DNA of 64,000 nt, taken from contig MHSR01000008.1 in assembly GCA_001822815.1 (NCBI GenBank), forward strand, positions 49,602-113,601, written 5' to 3'. The stretch is from Candidatus Terrybacteria bacterium RIFCSPHIGHO2_01_FULL_43_35 (lineage in GTDB: Bacteria; Patescibacteriota; Minisyncoccia; Terrybacterales; GWB1-40-14). The position numbers were made by a program, and so were the translations under genes. The notes under the pieces are model-generated. The model was not told where the DNA came from and made no database searches. It saw only the letters and a program-made list of their open reading frames with translations. Each line of letters starts with the position of its first letter. Positions within the stretch are counted from its first letter, which is position 1. Below, piece after piece: positions 1,793 through 63,426 of the stretch.

Positions 1793-2881
1793 ATGGACAA
1801 TAAAACCAATAAAAAGATTTATGTGGGTTTGTCTGGAGGAGTAGACAGTTCAGTAGCCGCCGCCTTGCTTAAAGAGCAGGGTTTTGATGTTACGGGTATT
1901 TTCATTAAATGTTGGTCGCCGGAATTTGCCGGATTTTCTTCGGCAGAAGAATGCCCTTGGGAGCAGGATCAGAAAGATGCTGAAGATGTTGCTAAAAAAT
2001 TAGGCGTTCCGTTCAAATCGCTCAATTTGGAAAAGGAGTATTGGGAAAGGGTTTCTAGTCCGACAATTCAAGATTACGCGCGAGGGTTAACTCCAAACCC
2101 GGATGTTCTATGTAATAAAGAAATAAAATTCGGTTTATTTTTGGAATATGCCTTGCGTCAAGGAGCGGATTTGATAGCTACGGGTCATTACGTTAAAAAA
2201 TCAGCTGATAATTCTTTATTGTGCGCTGAAGACATCAATAAAGACCAGTCTTATTTCTTGTGGATGTTGAATAGAGTGCAGTTAGAAAAATGCCTATTTC
2301 CGATAGGAGATTATACAAAACAAGAGGTACGCGATATGGCCAGAAAATATGCTTTGCCTACCGCAGAAAAATCAGACAGTCAGGGCATATGTTTTGTAGG
2401 CAATGTTCCAATACGCCAATTCCTCAAGCATTATATTGAAGAGAGGCCGGGTGAAGTAGTAACCTTAAACGGTAAGGTTGTTGGACGTCATGAAGGCGTT
2501 GCATTCTATACTATCGGTCAACGTCGGGGGATCGGTTCATTCGGAGGCGAAGCACCGTATTATGTTACTAAAAAGGATTTATCCGCAAATACTATTACTG
2601 TTGTCCCGCCCTCGCAAATAGAACAGCTTTATCAAGACAAACTCGTCGCTTCAAATACAAATTGGATCAGTGGACTTCAGCCAGTTTTGCCATTAAAGTG
2701 TTTTTGCAGGATAAGATATAGGCAAGAATTGCAGAAATGTACCATTGTTGATTTTACTGACGGTTATTTGCAAGTTGAATTTAGTAAGCCTCAGAGAGGC
2801 ATAGCTGAGGGGCAATCAATCGTTTTTTATGACAAAGATGTTGTAATAGGCGGAGCAATTATCCACCACAATTTTACTTGA
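1793..2881 (+). CDS. mnmA: tRNA-specific 2-thiouridylase MnmA
   Basis: N-terminal 'KIYVGLSGGVDSSVAA' PP-loop and overall MnmA-like sequence; typical ~360 aa length. Confidence 0.9.
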   Translation: MDNKTNKKIYVGLSGGVDSSVAAALLKEQGFDVTGIFIKCWSPEFAGFSSAEECPWEQDQKDAEDVAKKLGVPFKSLNLEKEYWERVSSPTIQDYARGLTPNPDVLCNKEIKFGLFLEYALRQGADLIATGHYVKKSADNSLLCAEDINKDQSYFLWMLNRVQLEKCLFPIGDYTKQEVRDMARKYALPTAEKSDSQGICFVGNVPIRQFLKHYIEERPGEVVTLNGKVVGRHEGVAFYTIGQRRGIGSFGGEAPYYVTKKDLSANTITVVPPSQIEQLYQDKLVASNTNWISGLQPVLPLKCFCRIRYRQELQKCTIVDFTDGYLQVEFSKPQRGIAEGQSIVFYDKDVVIGGAIIHHNFT

Positions 2882-2896
2882 AGTTTTTAGAAACAT

Positions 2897-4762
2897 ATGA
2901 CTTTCAAAGAAATAAGAGAAAAATTTATAAAATTTTTTGAAAGGCATGGCCATACAGCTGTGCCATCTTCTTCTTTGATTCCCGACGATCCTTCGGTTTT
3001 ATTGACTACGGCAGGTATGCAGCAGTTTAAGCCCTATTGGGGGGAACTTGATCCGGAGCAAACTATACATCCCAGCATAGGCAAACCAGTTGGTAAAAAT
3101 GCCGTTTCTATACAGAAATCCTTTAGGACTTCGGATATAGATGAAGTGGGAGATGAAAGCCACCTTACTTTCTTTGAAATGATGGGCAATTTTAGCTTCG
3201 GCGGCTACTTTAAGAAAGAGGCTATTGCTTATGCGCATGAGTTTCTTACCAAAGAATTGGGTCTTAAAATTTCATATGTAACCGTATTTGAAGGAAATGA
3301 AGCTATGGGCGTTCCTGAAGATAAAGAGTCAGCTGCCATATGGAAAGAGCTTGATCCTGCTATAAGGATTGAAAAACAAGGCATGGAAAACGTTTTTTGG
3401 GGTCCTACAGGCGCTTCTGGTCCTTGTGGTCCCACCACGGAGGTTTATTTTAAAAATGCCCAGGGACAGGATATAGAAACGTGGAATTTAGTTTTTAACG
3501 AATATTTTTATCCTGGTTCACGCGAAGAATTATTAAACAGCGCGCCAGGAAAAAAGTTGGAAAAATTAAAAACACCAGGAGTTGATACGGGTATGGGGCT
3601 TGAACGGATAGCAATGATTGTTCAAGAAAAGAAAAATATTTTTGAAACTGATCTATTTGAACCTATATTAAGAGCCGTTATTGAAATTCAAGGAGATAAG
3701 CCAATTCAGCAGATTAGGTTAATCGCAGATCATTTGAGGGCAGTAACTTTTTTGATTGCCGATGGTCTTGAGCCAGGAATAGATGAGCGTAATTATATTC
3801 CGAGACGTTTAATACGAGATGCTATGACGGCTCATTATTTGTATATAGGGGCAGGTATAGATATCAATTTCTGTGTTGATCCTGTAAATACAATTATTGA
3901 TATATATAGAAAAGATTATCCGTATCTTTTAGAAAAGCGAGAAGAAATTATTTCGATAATACGAAAGGAGACAGAAAATTTTTCTAAGGTTTTAAAATTG
4001 GTTGGTAATGTTTTGGATCTAAAAAAACAATATATTAGTTTTAGTACAGAAAAGAAATGGCCCGAGGTTAGATCGGGAACAGATATAATTGATTTAGACG
4101 GCAAAATTTTATTCGATATACGTCAGTCTATAGGAGTAAGCTGGTCGCAAATGAAAATGGTTATAGAAAAAGAAGGATTTGAATTAGGCGATAAAGTGCT
4201 TACTGAATATGATGAGGCGTATAAAAAACACCAGGAATTGTCTCGTGCCGGTCAGGAAAGAAAATTCGGCGGACACGGGCTTCTTTTAGATACCGGCGAA
4301 CTCAAAGCCGCCAACGAGGAAGAGCTCAAAAAAGTTACCCGTCTTCATACCGCAACGCATATGCTCCAGGCGGCTTTGCGCCAGATTTTGGGTCAGGAGA
4401 TTTATCAGATGGGATCGGATATAACCGTTGAAAGACTTAGATTTGACTTCACTTTCTCAAGAAAAGTCACTCCCGAAGAATTATTACAAGTAGAATCTCT
4501 AGTGCGACGAAAGGTTAGTGAGAATTTGCCGGTTAACAAAACAGAAATGCCAATTGAAGATGCTAAAAATTCAGGAGCCCTTACTGTTGCAACAGCAAAA
4601 TATCCCCCGATGGTTAAAGTTTACTCTATAGATGATTTTTCAAGAGAAGTTTGCGGCGGACCCCATGTTTCCCGCACATCCGAAGTGGGTGAGTTCAAAA
4701 TAATTAAGGAAGAAGCTTCTTCAACCGGAATTCGCAGAATTAGAGCTGTAGTTTCGCCATAA
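2897..4762 (+). CDS. alaS: Alanyl-tRNA synthetase, short form (621 aa)
   Basis: AlaRS class-II N-terminus ('FKEIREKFIKFFERHGH...LLTTAGMQQFKPYW'). Editing-domain motifs 'HTATHML' (HxxxH) and 'CGGPHV' (CxxxH) are present. The C-terminal C-Ala domain appears absent. Confidence 0.85.
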   Translation: MTFKEIREKFIKFFERHGHTAVPSSSLIPDDPSVLLTTAGMQQFKPYWGELDPEQTIHPSIGKPVGKNAVSIQKSFRTSDIDEVGDESHLTFFEMMGNFSFGGYFKKEAIAYAHEFLTKELGLKISYVTVFEGNEAMGVPEDKESAAIWKELDPAIRIEKQGMENVFWGPTGASGPCGPTTEVYFKNAQGQDIETWNLVFNEYFYPGSREELLNSAPGKKLEKLKTPGVDTGMGLERIAMIVQEKKNIFETDLFEPILRAVIEIQGDKPIQQIRLIADHLRAVTFLIADGLEPGIDERNYIPRRLIRDAMTAHYLYIGAGIDINFCVDPVNTIIDIYRKDYPYLLEKREEIISIIRKETENFSKVLKLVGNVLDLKKQYISFSTEKKWPEVRSGTDIIDLDGKILFDIRQSIGVSWSQMKMVIEKEGFELGDKVLTEYDEAYKKHQELSRAGQERKFGGHGLLLDTGELKAANEEELKKVTRLHTATHMLQAALRQILGQEIYQMGSDITVERLRFDFTFSRKVTPEELLQVESLVRRKVSENLPVNKTEMPIEDAKNSGALTVATAKYPPMVKVYSIDDFSREVCGGPHVSRTSEVGEFKIIKEEASSTGIRRIRAVVSP

Positions 4763-28601: not shown

Positions 28602-29075
28602 ATGCCATCAAATTATATTACTAAAGACGGTTTAGAAAAATTGAAGCAGGAGCTTGAGGAACTAAAGACAGTCAAGCGACTAGAAATAGCCGAGAAACTT
28701 CAGAGGTCTATTGCTTTTGGTGATTTGTCTGAAAATGCCGAATATCAGGAAGCTAAAGAAGAGCAGGCTTTTCTTGAAGGCCGCATTGATGAACTTGAGG
28801 CTGCTGTTGAATCAGCTGTCATCATTGAAACAAATCACAATAACGGTTCCAGAGTCGTCTCCATTGGTTCTAAAGTTGTTGTTGAACAAACAAACCCGCC
28901 CGGCCCAAAATCAACTTTCGTTATTGTGGGTTCAGAAGAAGCGTCACCGTCTGAAGGCCGGATCTCTAATGCTTCACCCATAGGCATGATGCTCTTGGGG
29001 CACGGAGTAGAAGAAACCGTTTCGGCCAGAACGCCGGCAGGCGTAAAACAGTATAGGATTGTAAGTATTGAATAA
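28602..29075 (+). CDS. greA: Transcription elongation factor GreA
   Basis: 'ITKDGLEKLKQELEELKTVKRLEIAEKLQRSIAFGDLSENAEYQEAKEEQAFLEGRIDELE' is canonical GreA. Listed ORF 28482 adds an implausible 40-aa N-terminal extension that reads through a GC-rich leader. Confidence 0.85.
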   Translation: MPSNYITKDGLEKLKQELEELKTVKRLEIAEKLQRSIAFGDLSENAEYQEAKEEQAFLEGRIDELEAAVESAVIIETNHNNGSRVVSIGSKVVVEQTNPPGPKSTFVIVGSEEASPSEGRISNASPIGMMLLGHGVEETVSARTPAGVKQYRIVSIE

Positions 29076-29188: not shown

Positions 29189-30658
29189 ATGGTTCAGCTC
29201 AACGATATAATTGCCGAACGCAGAAGGAAACGTGATGCCTTGAAATCACTTGGCGTAAATCCTTATCCAGCTGGAATTAAGCGTTCGCATGAAATCAAAA
29301 AAGCTATCGCGGATTTCGACGCGCTCTCAAAAAAGAAAACCAAAATCCGTCTTGCCGGGCGTGTTTTGCTTTTAAGGCCATATGGGGCGATAACTTTCAT
29401 GAAGATAGCCGATGGATCGGATGAAATACAGCTTCTTGTCCGTAGAGCCTCTCTAGACAAAAATCAGACCAAGTTTATGTCTTACGTGGATCTCGGCGAT
29501 TTCGTTGCCGTACGAGGCATTCTCGCTTTAAGCAAAAGCGGCGAAAAAACATTGGAAGTCGAAAATATTGAAATTATAACTAAAGCCCTGCGTTCGTTGC
29601 CCGATAAGTGGCATGGTTTAACGGACGTTGAAGAAAGATTCAGAAGACGGTATCTTGATCTTTTAATGAGTCAAGGAAATAAAAACCGTTTTATTTTGAG
29701 AGCTAAAATTTCAAATATAATCCGTGAACAGTTCATCAAGGACGGTTTTTTGGAAGTTGAAACACCCACCTTACAGAGCGTTCCTGCTGGCGCCGCAGCC
29801 CGGCCCTTTAAAACTCATCTCGCGGCCTTAGATATACCTCTTTACTTGCGTATTGCTCCCGAGCTGTATCTCAAAGAATTGCTGGTCGGAGGATTTGATA
29901 AGGTTTTTGAGATGGGCAGGATGTTCAGGAATGAAGGCATGGACGCCACGCATAATCCAGAATTCACGGCGCTTGAAGGTTATTGGGCTTATCAGGATGC
30001 GCAGGGCCTTATGGATTATCTTGAGAAATTTATAATTAAGGTACTTGATAAAAGCGGCGTTGGCAGAAAAATGATTTTTCGCGATCACAAAATAGAGTGG
30101 AATTTGTCTATCCCTAAAAAAAGTTTTAATGAAATAGTTAAAACCTATGCCAAAATAGATTTGGCAAAGTCAAATATAGAAGAAATTGCCGACGTATTGA
30201 TTAAAAGCGGGCATGATATTCCAAAAATAAAAACAGAGAGCGAGTTCTGTGAAGCTGTTTTCAAGAAGATGTGTTTGCCGCATTTGATACAGCCGATATT
30301 CGTTACCGAACATCCCTTGGCGCTCTCGCCTTTAGCCAAAAAGAAAGCTGGTAGCGATGTTGCTGACCGTTTCCAGCTTGTTGTCGGTGGTTTTGAGCTA
30401 ATCAACGGATATAGTGAATTGAATGACCCAGACGAACAGCGTGAACGTTTTGAAAAATCAGAAGCCGATATTGGCAAGGGTGCCCAGGAAGCCCAGCTTG
30501 GGGATGAAGATTTTGTTGAAGCCTTGGAATATGGCATGCCGCCTGCGGCCGGGTTTGGTATAGGCATGGATCGTTTAGTGATGTTGCTTACCGATTCGGC
30601 TAACATCAGAGAGGTGATTCTTTTCCCAACCATGCGGCCGAAGAAAAATGGAGAGTAG
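29189..30658 (+). CDS. lysS: Lysyl-tRNA synthetase (class II)
   Basis: N-terminal OB-fold anticodon-binding region and class-II core ('FLEVETPTLQ...', 'FRNEGMDATHNPEFT', 'GFGIGMDRLVMLLT'). Confidence 0.9.
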   Translation: MVQLNDIIAERRRKRDALKSLGVNPYPAGIKRSHEIKKAIADFDALSKKKTKIRLAGRVLLLRPYGAITFMKIADGSDEIQLLVRRASLDKNQTKFMSYVDLGDFVAVRGILALSKSGEKTLEVENIEIITKALRSLPDKWHGLTDVEERFRRRYLDLLMSQGNKNRFILRAKISNIIREQFIKDGFLEVETPTLQSVPAGAAARPFKTHLAALDIPLYLRIAPELYLKELLVGGFDKVFEMGRMFRNEGMDATHNPEFTALEGYWAYQDAQGLMDYLEKFIIKVLDKSGVGRKMIFRDHKIEWNLSIPKKSFNEIVKTYAKIDLAKSNIEEIADVLIKSGHDIPKIKTESEFCEAVFKKMCLPHLIQPIFVTEHPLALSPLAKKKAGSDVADRFQLVVGGFELINGYSELNDPDEQRERFEKSEADIGKGAQEAQLGDEDFVEALEYGMPPAAGFGIGMDRLVMLLTDSANIREVILFPTMRPKKNGE

Positions 30659-30790
30659 ATGCAAGCAACAATTCTGTTCGCGTCTACAAGGAATCCCTCC
30701 ATACCGAAAGCCGTTCCAGCAAGAGGTTCGTGGCCTTAATGACGCTCACAGAACAGTTGCTTGAATTAAGATGATCTTAAGGCTTTATAT

Positions 30791-31399
30791 ATGCGTTTGA
30801 TTTTGGCAACCAAAAACCAGGGGAAATTACAGGAGATGAGAGAGGTTATGTCGGGTTTACCGTTTGAGTTGGTTTCGCTTCAAGAGTTGGGTGATATCGA
30901 TAAGGTTGAAGAGGACGGTGCAACATTCCTGGATAACGCGCTTATCAAGGCGCGTTATTTTGCGACGAAATACAAATGTCCCGCGCTGGCCGATGATGGT
31001 GGACTTGAAATTGATGTTTTGGGAGGGGAGCCGGGAGTGCGCACGCGCCGTTGGCCTGGATACGAAGCAAGCGATGAGGAACTTATAGATTATACTTTAG
31101 AAAAACTCAAAGGTGTTCCTTTTGAAAAACGCACTGCGCGGTTAACCACTGTTGTAGCTGTTGCTTTTCTGGATGGTTCTTTTATCTCCGCAACTTCAAG
31201 CAGGGGAGGTATTATTTCCGAAAAACCGCATCCCAAGCGTCAGGAGGGTTATCCGTTCCGGTCTTTGCATATCTTGCCAGAGTTGAACAAGTTTTATATA
31301 GAACTTACCGAAGAAGAAAATCAGAAACTTAATCATCGTCGGGAGGCACTTAATATTTTGCGCATGGAACTGGAAGAAAACCCTCTGCTTGACATATAA
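30791..31399 (+). CDS. rdgB: Non-canonical purine NTP pyrophosphatase (Ham1/RdgB family)
   Basis: 'LILATKNQGKLQEMREV', 'DDGGLEIDVLGGEPGVRTRRW'; ~200 aa. Confidence 0.85.
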   Translation: MRLILATKNQGKLQEMREVMSGLPFELVSLQELGDIDKVEEDGATFLDNALIKARYFATKYKCPALADDGGLEIDVLGGEPGVRTRRWPGYEASDEELIDYTLEKLKGVPFEKRTARLTTVVAVAFLDGSFISATSSRGGIISEKPHPKRQEGYPFRSLHILPELNKFYIELTEEENQKLNHRREALNILRMELEENPLLDI

Positions 31400-31417
31400 T
31401 AAAATATTTGATATAAT
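31389..31417 (+). promoter_or_regulatory. Consensus sigma70-type promoter TTGACA-17-TATAAT overlapping the rdgB stop codon and driving the GC-rich cassette gene
   Basis: 'cTTGACAtataataaaatatttgaTATAATa': perfect -35 and -10 with a 17-nt spacer. Confidence 0.5.
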
Positions 31418-31518
31418 ATAAGCACATGTTAAGTAGCATGTCGCTTGCGGCGTTATGCCGTAGGTTAGAGCCGTTCTGTCTGGGCTAACACGGGCAGAGA
31501 AATCAAGGAGGTGCCGTG

Positions 31519-31998
31519 ATGGCATCAGGCAGCGACGTACTCAGCAGGATCAGAGATCGTGAGGACGGGGTCAACGAGTCCAAACCGTACTTCGCGATCA
31601 CGAACGCTCCCGGTCCTTTCCGTCTCTTGACCACAATGATCGAGATGTACGAGAAGCACGGGAATTCCCACGTCGTGGATCTCACGGTGCGGGCGATCTT
31701 GGACTCAGGTCTAGAATTGCTCGGCCACGATCGGGAATTCAAGATTCCCTTCGAGTTCGTGCTTCAAGGACCGACCACCAGCGTAGGCCACGGTTCTGAT
31801 CAGCCCAGGAACATCCGATTGCTCGGACGGTTCCTGATCACGAACCACGTGCAGAGTGGCTACTCTCCATACGTCGATCCGCGGAAAGCGGCTCCGGTGC
31901 TTGATGAGTGGCAGTGGGAAGCCATCTTCAACCCAGAGACTCGCAAGGGGCTGGTGCTCAGGCTCAAGGAACCTCTTCCTTGGGAATGGACCCTCTAG
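31519..31998 (+). CDS. Hypothetical 160-aa protein with foreign (GC-rich) composition, in a self-contained cassette
   Basis: Strong RBS 'AAGGAGG' 7 nt before the ATG (a GTG 3 nt upstream is also in frame). Codons end mainly in G or C, unlike the neighbours. No TM segment or recognisable motif. Followed by a strong terminator. Confidence 0.6.
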   Translation: MASGSDVLSRIRDREDGVNESKPYFAITNAPGPFRLLTTMIEMYEKHGNSHVVDLTVRAILDSGLELLGHDREFKIPFEFVLQGPTTSVGHGSDQPRNIRLLGRFLITNHVQSGYSPYVDPRKAAPVLDEWQWEAIFNPETRKGLVLRLKEPLPWEWTL

Positions 31999-32038
31999 TT
32001 CGTTCAATTAGGTATAGCTCCTACCTCAAACAGGAGCA

Positions 32039-32070
32039 GGGCGTAACGCTTCGGGCGACGCCCTTTTTCT
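32039..32070 (+). terminator. Rho-independent terminator (gggcgtaacgcttcgggcgacgccc + ttttt)
   Basis: GC-rich hairpin plus T-run ends the GC-rich cassette before serS. Confidence 0.65.
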
Positions 32071-32119
32071 TTGGTCTGGAATTAATATAACAAATTTGAA
32101 AAAATGATATTTTTAGCGT

Positions 32120-33376
32120 ATGCTTTCTATTGTTATGCTTGATATTAAACTAATTCGCGAAAATCCAGAAATAGTCAAAGACGCCATTTTAAAGAAGGGC
32201 GTTAAAGTTGATTTGGACAAAATAATCCTTTTGGACAAGCAGAAACGAGAACTTTTGACTGAAGTTGAACAATTGCGTGCCCGCCAGAAAAAAGAAGGCA
32301 CAGCTTCTGCGCGTCAGGCAATGCAGGAGCTAAAGTCAGAGATTAAAAACAAAGAAGAAGCTCTGTCTAAGATAGAGCCGGAGCTTGAAATGCTCCTGTT
32401 GGAATTGCCCAATATTCCAAATGCTGATGTACCTGAAGGCAAAGACGAAACCGGGAATGTTGTCGTACGCGAAGCCGGCTCCAAAAGAGAATTCTCATTT
32501 AAGCCGCTTTCATATATAGAGTTGGCCCAGAAGCATGAACTTATTGATACCGAGCGCGCCGGCAAAGTTTCTGGAAGCCGCTTTGGTTATCTGCTTCGCG
32601 AGGCCGCGTTAATTGAAATGGCGCTTGTGCGTTATGCTTATGATATTTTGCTTAAAGAAGAATTTATTCCGGTTATTCCTCCGGTGATGATTAAACCCGA
32701 TGTTTACCGCGGTATGGGCCGCTTAACTCGCGCACAGGAAGAGGAAAGGTATTATTTGCCTGCCGATGATTTATATCTTACAGGTAGCTCCGAGCACACC
32801 ATAGGACCGTTTCATGCCGATGAAATATTTAATATTAAAGATTTACCAAAGCGTTATGTGGGTTTCTCCTCGTGTTTTCGAAGGGAGGCCGGTTCATACG
32901 GCAAGGATACCAAGGGCATATTGCGTGTACACCAGTTTGATAAGGTTGAAATGTTCTCTTTTGTCTTGCCGGAAAATTCGTCCGCGGAACTTGAAAATTT
33001 AGTTAGCTTTCAGGAAAAGCTATATTCCGGTCTCAAGATTCCCTACAGAGTTGTTTCTATATGCGCGGGCGATATGGGCTTTACTGACGCCAAACAATAC
33101 GACATAGAGGCCTGGCTTCCTGGACAGGATGACGGACTTGGGCAATACCGCGAAACTCATTCTGCTTCAAATACAACAGATTTTCAAGCCAGAGGCGAAA
33201 ATATAAAATACCGCGCCATCAACGGTAAAACAGATTACGTGCATATGTTAAACGCTACCACTCTGGCGCTAGGCCGCACCATAATTGCCATACTTGAGAA
33301 TTATCAGAATAAGGATGGTTCAGTTGACATGCCGGAAGCGCTCGTGCCGTATCTTGGTTTTGATACGATAAAATAA
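32120..33376 (+). CDS. serS: Seryl-tRNA synthetase
   Basis: N-terminal coiled-coil arm and class-II core ('FRREAGSYGKDTKGILRVHQFDKVE', 'TTLALGRTIIAILENYQ'). Confidence 0.9.
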   Translation: MLSIVMLDIKLIRENPEIVKDAILKKGVKVDLDKIILLDKQKRELLTEVEQLRARQKKEGTASARQAMQELKSEIKNKEEALSKIEPELEMLLLELPNIPNADVPEGKDETGNVVVREAGSKREFSFKPLSYIELAQKHELIDTERAGKVSGSRFGYLLREAALIEMALVRYAYDILLKEEFIPVIPPVMIKPDVYRGMGRLTRAQEEERYYLPADDLYLTGSSEHTIGPFHADEIFNIKDLPKRYVGFSSCFRREAGSYGKDTKGILRVHQFDKVEMFSFVLPENSSAELENLVSFQEKLYSGLKIPYRVVSICAGDMGFTDAKQYDIEAWLPGQDDGLGQYRETHSASNTTDFQARGENIKYRAINGKTDYVHMLNATTLALGRTIIAILENYQNKDGSVDMPEALVPYLGFDTIK

Positions 33377-33386
33377 TTTTAGAATT

Positions 33387-33950
33387 ATGTTGGGACATAC
33401 AGATTTAACCGTGGGAACGGTATTTGTCATGGACGGCGATCCGTGGCAAGTAATGGAAACTCAATTCGTTAAAATGGCTCAGCGCACCGGGCATGTGCAG
33501 GCGAAGATAAAGAATTTACGCACCGGCTCCATGCTTTCGCGTGCCTTCAAGCAGGCAGATCGTTTTGAAGAAGCCGATTTGGAAACCATCAAATCAATGT
33601 TTGTTTTTGCGCATCGCGGCAAATATGTTTTCGCCGAAATCGCTAATCCTAAGAATCGCTTTGAATTTACGGAAGAACAGGTTGGCGATAATAAATATTA
33701 TCTTAAAAACAATCTTGAAGTCGGCGCCATGAAATTTCAAGGACAGTTCATTGGTATAATCGTCCCACCTAAAGTTGATCTTAAAGTTACAGAGGCTGCG
33801 CCTGGCGTTAGAGGTAATAGCGCGCAGGGCGGCACCAAAACCGTAGTTTGTGAGAGCGGTCTTGAACTGACAACTCCTCTGTTTATTGAAGAAGGAGATA
33901 TAATCAGAGTAAATACCAAAACCGGAGAATACGTTGAAAGAGCGAAATAA
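33387..33950 (+). CDS. efp: Elongation factor P
   Basis: 187 aa; KOW-like N-terminus 'GTVFVMDGDPWQVMETQFVKMAQRTGHVQAKIKNLRTG' and EF-P OB domains. Confidence 0.9.
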   Translation: MLGHTDLTVGTVFVMDGDPWQVMETQFVKMAQRTGHVQAKIKNLRTGSMLSRAFKQADRFEEADLETIKSMFVFAHRGKYVFAEIANPKNRFEFTEEQVGDNKYYLKNNLEVGAMKFQGQFIGIIVPPKVDLKVTEAAPGVRGNSAQGGTKTVVCESGLELTTPLFIEEGDIIRVNTKTGEYVERAK

Positions 33951-62919: not shown

Positions 62920-63426
62920 ATGGAAATAAGTATTATGAAGACAAGCAAAAATCTTATTATTGTTGGTGGCGTAGCTGCAGTTGTTGTAGTTATAATTGTC
63001 GTTTATTTGTTGATAGGAAGTTATTCTCCTGCAGGTACTAATTATACTGCGCCGGAGGAAAGCTCATCGCAAAATGTTGCGTCTTCGCCGACGCCAATTC
63101 CACCACCCGAATCTGCTCCAACGCCATCACCCGAGCCGCCGCCAGTTACATTGCCTCCACCGGCGCATTCTTCCGAAACCTTCAATGTGGCCATTTCCAA
63201 TTTTGCTTACGCGCCATCGGAAATACATATTAAAGTTGGAGATAAGATAATTTGGACAAATGAAGATTCTGTCGGACATACGGTAACAAGTGATAGCGGC
63301 AGCGAATTAGACAGCGCTCTTTTTGGCAAAAACGAAACTTATGAGCACGTATTTAATACATCCGGAAATTTCACATATCACTGTACGCCACATAAGTTTA
63401 TGACCGGTAAGGTTATAGTTGAGTAA
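62920..63426 (+). CDS. Membrane-anchored cupredoxin (type-1 blue copper protein, plastocyanin/amicyanin-like)
   Basis: N-terminal TM, Pro-rich linker, then a cupredoxin domain with 'GHTVT' (His ligand) and 'YHCTPHKFM' (the Cys-x-Pro-His-x-x-Met copper-ligand loop). Confidence 0.7.
   Translation: MEISIMKTSKNLIIVGGVAAVVVVIIVVYLLIGSYSPAGTNYTAPEESSSQNVASSPTPIPPPESAPTPSPEPPPVTLPPPAHSSETFNVAISNFAYAPSEIHIKVGDKIIWTNEDSVGHTVTSDSGSELDSALFGKNETYEHVFNTSGNFTYHCTPHKFMTGKVIVE

Follow-up and report, generated by a model that had tools for sequence, protein, structure and literature searches.

A GC-rich one-gene unit of Patescibacteria with a covarying leader RNA and an orphan protein

A one-gene unit between rdgB and serS

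In a 64,000-nucleotide stretch of the genome of Candidatus Terrybacteria bacterium RIFCSPHIGHO2_01_FULL_43_35 (contig MHSR01000008.1; hereafter the window, whose own numbering gives every coordinate without a locus prefix), a gene for a hypothetical protein lies between rdgB and serS in a short run of GC-rich DNA. We have studied this gene together with its homologues at other loci (designated by L numbers), and we report here on the leader RNA, the product and the composition of the unit that they form. Positions 31389-32073 hold a complete one-gene transcription unit made up of a promoter, a 95-nt leader, the Shine-Dalgarno (SD) sequence AAGGAGG, an open reading frame (ORF) of 159 amino acids (aa) and a terminator (Table 1), and by its sequence design the unit is insulated. 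The flanking genes are lysS, rdgB (Ham1/RdgB), serS and efp (EF-P). A first-pass annotation, made from the letters of the sequence, had described a self-contained single-gene module among housekeeping genes (rdgB, serS, efp), with a perfect TTGACA-17-TATAAT promoter across the rdgB stop, some 100 nt of leader, an AAGGAGG ribosome-binding site at a distance of 7 nt from the ATG and a strong hairpin terminator ahead of serS, and we found it to be right on each of these points. The promoter scores 12/12 and is the sole perfect match within 30500-33500; it overlaps the rdgB stop codon TAA (31397-31399), and its -35 box encodes the final rdgB codons (L-D-I-stop). The terminator (a stem followed by a U-tract) was missed by a simple scanner because of the loop limit of that scanner, and was recovered by folding. 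The ORF had also been seen, but as one of 160 aa, which would be the length from GTG 31516; the start kept across the family is ATG 31519 ("MA..."), which gives 159 aa. Where enough upstream sequence is available, most homologous copies likewise show a near-consensus promoter (TTGAC(A)-17/18-TATAAT-like) and, after it, a leader of ~100 nt, and in other copies a hairpin equivalent in position to H1 lies 5' of the terminator.

The unit is an insertion relative to conserved synteny. In three relatives (RdgB 73%, 71% and 53% identical), rdgB adjoins serS with a gap of 52, 38 and 24 nt, respectively, within a conserved gene block that runs from a penicillin-binding protein (PBP) gene through greA, lysS and rdgB to serS (and efp), whereas the window has 735 nt between the rdgB stop and the conserved serS start (ATG 32135). 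The unit is therefore no conserved syntenic component of this junction, and the insert-free arrangement that the first-pass annotation had proposed to look for does exist. The arrangement of the window was recovered in six independent assemblies at 99.96-100% identity, which rules out an assembly chimera. The closest homologue (66% identity) comes from a relative whose GreA is 81% identical, where the cassette lies between the PBP gene and greA, that is, in the same gene block but at another junction; in a third relative it is found neither there nor between rdgB and serS. Overall, members of the family were found at 12 or more different junctions, mostly among housekeeping genes (gatC|ligA; an aminoacyl-tRNA synthetase gene with gatB; Zip|HD; UPF0102|DUF218; RNase HII; dcd|CDP-OH transferase; tRNA-Arg|recG; tRNA-Arg|HD; mreC; mreB; enolase); each locus has a single copy, as does the window.

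An insertion sequence or a miniature inverted-repeat transposable element was considered and rejected. No Pfam transposase domain occurs at the cassette or among the family proteins, no target-site duplication is visible when filled and empty rdgB-serS sites are compared, and there are no conserved terminal inverted repeats, the 20-nt, 75% inverted repeat at the unit ends being confined to the type of 3' untranslated region (UTR) that the window has in common with L017.

Two observations concern the surroundings of individual copies. At L005:2369-2442 and L011:5770-5842, the cassettes begin ~30-60 nt from the 3' end of a tRNA-Arg (anticodons CCT and GCG), which could point to an integration preference beside tRNA genes or could be a coincidence. 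The region L001:6072-7751, ~4 kb downstream of the cassette, contains a large serine recombinase (Resolvase + Recombinase + Zn_ribbon_recom) as well as a number of small unknown ORFs, and for this reason the L001 copy may sit in a mobile region.

A covarying leader RNA

Judged by covariation, the leader is a new four-hairpin RNA element that is specific to this gene family. The first-pass annotation had noticed the leader as a length of sequence, but had missed its conserved covarying structure, which is the most informative feature of the unit. Using RNAalifold on 14 distinct leaders, we obtained four helices (P1 to P4) in which 95.9% of the cells are paired (83.6% in shuffles, 33-45% in slid controls) and 15 of 23 pairs show double changes against 6.2 expected; none of 500 shuffles reached the observed value. 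With 18 leaders aligned on a covariance model, 96.1% of the cells are paired, with 16 double-change pairs and 70 compensatory cells where 17 were expected. Over both alignments, the shuffles ranged from 80 to 84% paired and the slid controls from 30 to 45%, with 6-8 double-change pairs expected. The covariance model gave one match per locus, always directly 5' of the gene family, and nothing else in ~244 kb; the matches include the held-out L032 (87 bits), L031 (40 bits), the type-B leaders described below and L043. On its own, the leader of the window folds into P1-P4 (ΔG -41.3, z = -3.2). A search of Rfam 15 returned no match at the gathering score nor at E≤10, the best hit (17.6 bits, gathering score 36) being on the wrong strand.

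The four helices are conserved to different degrees. P1, which reads AAUUCCUG...CAGG in most homologues, has double changes in 4/6 pairs and 99% of its cells paired, and P2 has double changes in 8/9 pairs, with a GUUAU or GUAAU loop in most copies. For P3, 4/5 modelled pairs show double changes; the leaders fall into two types, A and B, and a type-B leader lacks this helix. In P4 the AUG (31519-21) begins in the loop and ends on the first base of the 3' arm. The family consensus of this hairpin, GCC-GUUAU-GGC, does not vary among 18 leaders; L043, at 31% protein identity the most distant member, has GUC-GUUAU-GAC, a compensatory change that fits a different second codon. P2 ends in the same apex as P4, C-GUUAU-G, which includes an AUG. 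In five loci (L009, L011, L013, L015 and L017) this upstream AUG is in frame with no intervening stop, and gene callers therefore give N-terminally extended proteins (e.g., MPLLRASSVWAETGR...); elsewhere it is out of frame or stopped after 2 codons (stopped, in the window), so that the extension is not a conserved coding sequence. Finally, a pseudoknot may connect the linker between P2 and P3 with the P3 loop. Its pairing reads AGCC:GGCU at 6 loci, AGCU:GGCU at 3, GGCC:GGCC in L013, GGCU:GGCC in L011 and AGCU:AGCU in L026, but by manual reading of the alignment it is missing in L012, L014 and L020, and we regard it as tentative because one subgroup lacks it.

Table 1. Predicted features of the unit, in window coordinates.
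Feature	Position	Strand	Description
Sigma-70 promoter	31389..31417	+	-35 TTGACA (31389-94), 17-nt spacer, extended -10 TGaTATAAT (31409-17; TG 31409-10, TATAAT 31412-31417)
P1	31424..31441	+	hairpin from the predicted +1, 7 nt after the -10; 5'-terminal stem-loop
P2	31443..31465	+	9-bp hairpin, pentaloop GUUAU (31452-56), C-G closing pair
Tentative pseudoknot	31469..31486	+	AGCC 31469-72 (in the conserved UAAGAGCC linker) with GGCU 31483-86 in the P3 loop
P3	31474..31499	+	9-bp hairpin, conserved loop start GGGCUAA
Shine-Dalgarno AAGGAGG	31505..31511	+	7 nt 5' of ATG 31519; kept in all copies
P4, start-codon hairpin	31510..31526	+	GGUGCC-GUGAU-GGCAUC; takes in the last two SD bases
Coding sequence, 159 aa	31519..31998	+	OHA47077.1 / UniRef100_A0A1G2PFK9, "hypothetical protein"; GC 0.57, GC content at third codon positions (GC3) 0.71
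3'UTR hairpin H1	32017..32037	+	GCUCCU...AGGAGC; by folding
Intrinsic terminator	32038..32073	+	stem 32038-64, then UUUUUCUUU

The main rival explanation for the role of this leader is that it is a riboswitch of a new class for a metabolite or an ion, and that the protein is an enzyme, a binding protein or a detoxifier with no part in its own control. A multi-helix, covarying 5'UTR that is strictly tied to one gene family, with conserved unpaired UAAGAGCC and GGGCUAA segments and a possible pseudoknot, is what such an element could look like. In many copies, moreover, UUCCUG, the conserved 5' arm of P1, could pair with CAGGAG in the SD region and so form an ON/OFF switch. Nevertheless, UUCCUG is absent from P1 of the window, and there is neither a terminator in the leader nor a clear anti-SD alternative in all copies. 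The P2 loop, P3 and the length of the leader vary, up to the loss of P3 in type B, beyond what aptamers usually tolerate; Rfam has nothing similar even at the relaxed threshold, and the gene family offers no clue to a ligand. We consider the riboswitch unlikely.

The 3' end of the transcript also bears on the leader. The P2 apex GCGUUAUGCC (31440-31459) is complementary to GGCGUAACGC in the 5' arm of the terminator (32040-32059); this is the 20-nt inverted repeat mentioned above, and the minimum free energy fold of the whole transcript (z = -4.25) closes on this 5'/3' helix. L017 has the same 3'UTR type and the same 5'-3' complementarity as the window, with a protein of a different clade (pN, the proportion of nonsynonymous differences, 0.35). 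In L006 and L015, the loop of a 3'UTR hairpin (AUAAC and ACAAC, respectively) is complementary or nearly so to GUUAU. These pairings may reflect communication between the 5' and 3' ends or may be due to chance. An Obelisk- or viroid-like RNA replicon, suggested by the closing helix, was also considered and was rejected, since all copies lie within host DNA and have a promoter and a terminator.

A protein family of orphan fold

The product is identical to hypothetical proteins from metagenome-assembled genomes of Candidatus Terrybacteria (accessions in Table 1), and as it has been deposited under that name the gene is not new to the databases. Our searches, which covered 5.8 billion and 1.84 billion proteins, assembled a family of ~30 clusters, with 12 homologues at 47-66% identity and further ones down to ~30%. 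All named sources are Patescibacteria (Terrybacteria, Sungbacteria, Niyogibacteria and "Patescibacteria group"), and the members found are confined to these bacteria or to Patescibacteria-like contigs. In codon alignments of 19 copies, the proportion of synonymous differences (pS) exceeds pN in 171/171 pairs and dN/dS is 0.1-0.2 for the closer pairs, which demonstrates that the ORF is translated and under purifying selection; the protein alignment has conservative replacements and in-frame indels. Using a 26-sequence alignment, AlphaFold (AF2) returned a confident alpha/beta model, with a mean predicted local distance difference test score (pLDDT) of 86.9 and a predicted template modelling score (pTM) of 0.80, where the prediction from the single sequence (pLDDT 41) was not usable. 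The protein is soluble, with no transmembrane segment (maximum Kyte-Doolittle value 0.92) and a near-neutral pI; across the wider family the only polar residues kept are E79, R100 and E134.

We could not connect this protein to any known family. Foldseek found no fold relative in the PDB (best E = 0.087, TM 0.25) nor in BFVD, the viral fold library (best E = 0.24); the 159-aa protein has no match in Pfam, PHROGs, PADLOC, NCBIfam or, by sequence and by profile, the PDB; all 26 family members are without a match in Pfam and PHROGs; and no domain fusions emerged when more distant or fused relatives were sought with a profile. The first-pass annotation, which had recognised neither a transmembrane segment nor a motif and had suggested a structure prediction with a Foldseek search, was therefore correct in its description of the protein. 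The same cannot be said of its guesses at a function, namely a phage moron, an anti-defence gene or a toxin or immunity gene. Phage genomes and plasmids (by tblastn) and a scan of viral contigs contained no homologue, the phage, defence and viral-fold resources were empty as stated, and no partner gene of the toxin-antitoxin or immunity kind recurs, the neighbours being different at the 12 or more loci. In the literature we found nothing on the protein family or on the leader. The protein family, the leader motif and the compositional trait described in the next section (a maintained GC and mRNA-stability trait) thus appear to be undescribed.

One copy deserves separate mention. At L020:4022-4408 (the same as L021), a full leader is followed by an ORF that stops after 128 aa, and the C-terminal ~20 residues, the 3'UTR and the terminator are absent; this copy is probably truncated or decaying.

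The evidence for translation also bears on a quite different reading, in which the unit is a structured non-coding RNA with a chance open frame, or an assembly chimera. A GC-rich island behind a consensus promoter is often what a non-coding RNA gene looks like in the Candidate Phyla Radiation (CPR), the whole transcript is stably folded with its two ends joined, and a unit of comparable design in L022 is GC-rich and looks non-coding. Nevertheless, the substitution pattern, the conservative replacements and in-frame indels, the confident AF2 fold and the lack of any conserved RNA structure inside the ORF, together with the identical arrangement in six assemblies, effectively refute this reading.

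GC-richness as a maintained trait

The first-pass annotation had pointed to the GC-rich composition of the cassette and had taken it for a sign of recent acquisition. The composition itself is beyond doubt. GC content is 42.1% over the 64-kb window and 56-58% over 31440-32065, and at the ORF (31519-31998) the GC content of 0.571, against a mean of 0.421, is higher than in any other 480-nt segment of the 64 kb (z = 5.0), no other GC island there being as strong. Its GC3 of 0.713 compares with 0.402 ± 0.049 (range 0.31-0.51, maximum 0.505) in the 56 other genes (z = 6.4), so that both values fall outside the normal distribution. For the comparison of codon usage with ribosomal genes that the annotation had proposed, we took five ribosomal-protein genes, rpoA and efp as the host reference set. 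Relative synonymous codon usage of the ORF is anti-correlated with this set (r = -0.46), whereas the set correlates with the other genes at r = +0.87, and the codon adaptation index is 0.49 against 0.72 ± 0.03. For F, Y, H, N and I, the ORF prefers NNC over NNT by 28:2. Host translational selection was rejected as the cause of this GC3, as the host ribosomal genes have a GC3 of 0.37 and prefer NNT.

What is not supported is the claim that the unit is a recent arrival. GC3 is 0.59-0.84 in 18 of 19 copies (0.49 in the divergent L027), in host flanks of 34-56% GC and without any trend towards host GC, and the silent sites between copies are saturated (dS 0.65 to >2). In the syntenic ortholog pair L006/L015, both with the order gatC|X|ligA, the cassettes have a GC3 of 0.66 and 0.72 and a pS of 0.44, while the flanking gatC and ligA have a GC3 of 0.38-0.55 and a pS of 0.72 and 0.80. 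GC-richness is thus a maintained property of the whole family, accompanied by reduced silent-site change. Since GC3 remains high through saturated dS and in this pair, it is not the signature of a GC-rich donor that has yet to be ameliorated.

These data have to be weighed against the idea of foreign cargo (moron-like, anti-defence, or an orphan toxin or immunity gene) that was acquired recently from such a donor. Insertion relative to conserved synteny, codon usage opposed to that of the host, a promoter and a terminator of its own, a patchy distribution over many junctions and, for the L001 copy, a serine recombinase ~4 kb away amid small unknown ORFs would all be expected of cargo. On the other hand, the members that we found all lie on AT-rich to moderate-GC, CPR-like contigs, with no GC-rich reservoir in the 5.8 billion proteins and no member turning up on GC-rich or viral contigs, phages or plasmids. 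The sequence and fold searches for phage, plasmid, viral and defence relatives were all negative, the neighbours are mostly housekeeping genes rather than defence islands, with no recurrent partner, and the high GC3 has outlasted saturation and AT-biased flanks. Foreign cargo is, in our judgement, quite unlikely.

The composition is accompanied by unusual folding of the mRNA. We compared each native coding region with 24 synonymous shuffles that kept the protein, the codon usage and GC3 fixed, and used ten genes of the window as controls. The native sequences fold more stably than their shuffles (median z -2.5, negative in 17/19), and in 12/19 copies none of the 24 shuffles folds more stably than the native sequence; the controls average z = -0.3 (Mann-Whitney p = 0.0015 against the family). 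As the shuffles hold GC3 and codon usage and yet fold less stably, composition alone does not explain this stability. The same result counts against GC-biased gene conversion, or frequent recombination of an exchanged cassette, as the cause of the GC-richness with folding stability as a by-product. Such exchange would agree with the many junctions, with UTR modules that different protein clades have apparently exchanged (one 3'UTR type is shared by the window and L017 despite a pN of 0.35, and leaders A and B occur in one clade), and with a pS in the cassette below that of the syntenic flanks, which fits recent recombination. We saw neither a multi-copy state nor recombination machinery, and we regard this explanation as unlikely, although gene conversion of this kind may contribute to the trait.

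Other features of the window and of related loci

Further self-contained GC-rich units were seen near two copies. At L022:2052-3060, directly after the cassette, two of them stand behind consensus promoters: the first has a 59-aa ORF (2150-2328) between direct repeats (caaaggcaaagcccgcctaMactcc), and the second (~450 nt, 2600-3060) is non-coding-looking and has its own terminator; neither has an Rfam match at the gathering score. At L032:770-933, downstream of the cassette, another consensus promoter (cttgacaaataaaatggttatgctataat) leads into GC-rich sequence that is full of hairpins, has no obvious ORF and no Rfam match, and is cut off by the contig end. Standalone GC-rich units behind strong promoters may therefore be a recurring design in such genomes.

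At 32120-32137 in the window itself, the listed serS ORF begins at ATG 32120 (MLSIVMLDIK), and its true start is probably ATG 32135 (MLDIK), the equivalent of the start used by three orthologues. In the segment 28482-28604, the listed greA ORF begins at a GTG ~40 codons upstream of the orthologue start MP(S/A)NYIT..., and translation probably starts near 28602 instead. A promoter-like sequence in the spacer between the PBP gene and greA is conserved with L030. At 62920-63426 there is a gene for a cupredoxin (a plastocyanin/azurin-like copper-binding protein), which is notable in a Terrybacteria genome, an organism expected to have little respiratory machinery.

Discussion

The unit resembles several known systems. 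Like a phage moron, it is a self-contained unit between genes that are adjacent in relatives, with deviant GC and codon usage. It differs from morons in that it lies in a bacterial chromosome among housekeeping genes and not in a phage or prophage, in having no phage homologues by sequence or by fold, and in a composition that is a maintained family trait instead of the signature of a donor. Translational operators that work through mimicry or through hairpins at the start site are known from the thrS leader, ribosomal-protein leaders, the MS2 coat protein on the replicase start hairpin and T4 RegA. The unit shares with them a structured leader tied to one gene, a start codon within a conserved hairpin (P4) and an upstream hairpin (P2) that repeats the C-GUUAU-G apex, unlike them, its protein is unrelated to known RNA-binding families and the P2 loop is not universal. 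As for the orphan riboswitch candidates and cis-regulatory motifs of Rfam, the likeness lies in the multi-helix covarying 5'UTR with a possible pseudoknot and one gene family, and the difference in the lack of an Rfam 15 match, of a clearly recognisable ligand or canonical expression platform and of a constant architecture (types A and B). Long-lived mRNAs of the ompA, ermC and aprE type carry 5'-terminal stabiliser stem-loops; P1 at the predicted +1, the unusually structured mRNA and the two 3' hairpins are similar, but the transcription start site here is predicted, and a GC-recoded coding region is not a usual companion of such stabilisers. CBF-beta (core-binding factor beta) and the small DUF3237/UPF0311 pseudo-barrels are also to be named among the closest known systems. 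Being outside phages and without phage relatives, an Rfam match or a relative of its protein in family or fold, the unit is moron-like in layout and operator-gene-like in its leader, but a member of neither class.

Based on our results, we favour, with a probability of about 0.5, an autonomous unit specific to the Patescibacteria (CPR) that combines strong, insulated expression from a long-lived mRNA with gated translation and a feedback factor. The hairpin at the 5' end, the compact GC-rich body and the double 3' hairpin would give the mRNA its long life. Translation would be gated at the start-codon hairpin P4 (GCC-GUUAU-GGC), and the look-alike P2 (GGC-GUUAU-GCC) would be a second site for the same trans-acting factor. 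By analogy with operator-mimicry leaders, this factor could most simply be the encoded protein, acting in feedback.

Several points weigh against this reading. The promoter and the terminator are predictions, being matches to consensus. In its consensus P4 has only 3 bp, and would hence be a weak repressor alone. The GUUAU loop of P2 is different in L031 and L043, and within a single clade of close proteins, leaders of type A and type B replace each other; together, these exceptions weaken a strict model of co-evolution between protein and operator. The near-neutral pI of the protein and its modelled fold give no hint of RNA binding. In the coding region, no consensus structure is shared (alifold z = -0.85), so that the folding signal is a general compactness of each mRNA and not a conserved fold, and two family members have a positive folding z with 24 shuffles per gene. 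Lastly, the high GC3 and the low pS would need no selection on the RNA if they were due to GC-biased gene conversion or to recombination between lineages in the recent past.

A bolder possibility is that the unit represents a new kind of CPR RNA-protein module, in which a GC-rich transcript selected for its structure and a protein of orphan fold would form a ribonucleoprotein, the protein recognising GUUAU hairpins and linking the 5' and 3' ends, and in which the unit would relocate without a recombinase of its own. We regard this as improbable. The autonomous unit with gated translation remains the reading that we prefer.

In conclusion, our results bear on how anomalous composition is read in bacterial genomes. 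A strong GC and codon anomaly, which is usually taken as a mark of recent horizontal transfer, can be a trait that is held by selection or by biased conversion; in this family it persists over saturated silent-site divergence and is joined by an added stability of the mRNA. Should GC-recoding indeed stabilise the mRNA, the unit would be a compact natural design for high and insulated expression in slow-growing organisms with reduced genomes. Much of the proteome of the Patescibacteria is uncharacterised, and to our knowledge few regulatory RNAs have been described in them. In this context, the family offers a concrete and testable case in which a cis-acting RNA and a protein fold, both of them uncharacterised and found only in Patescibacteria, occur as a pair.

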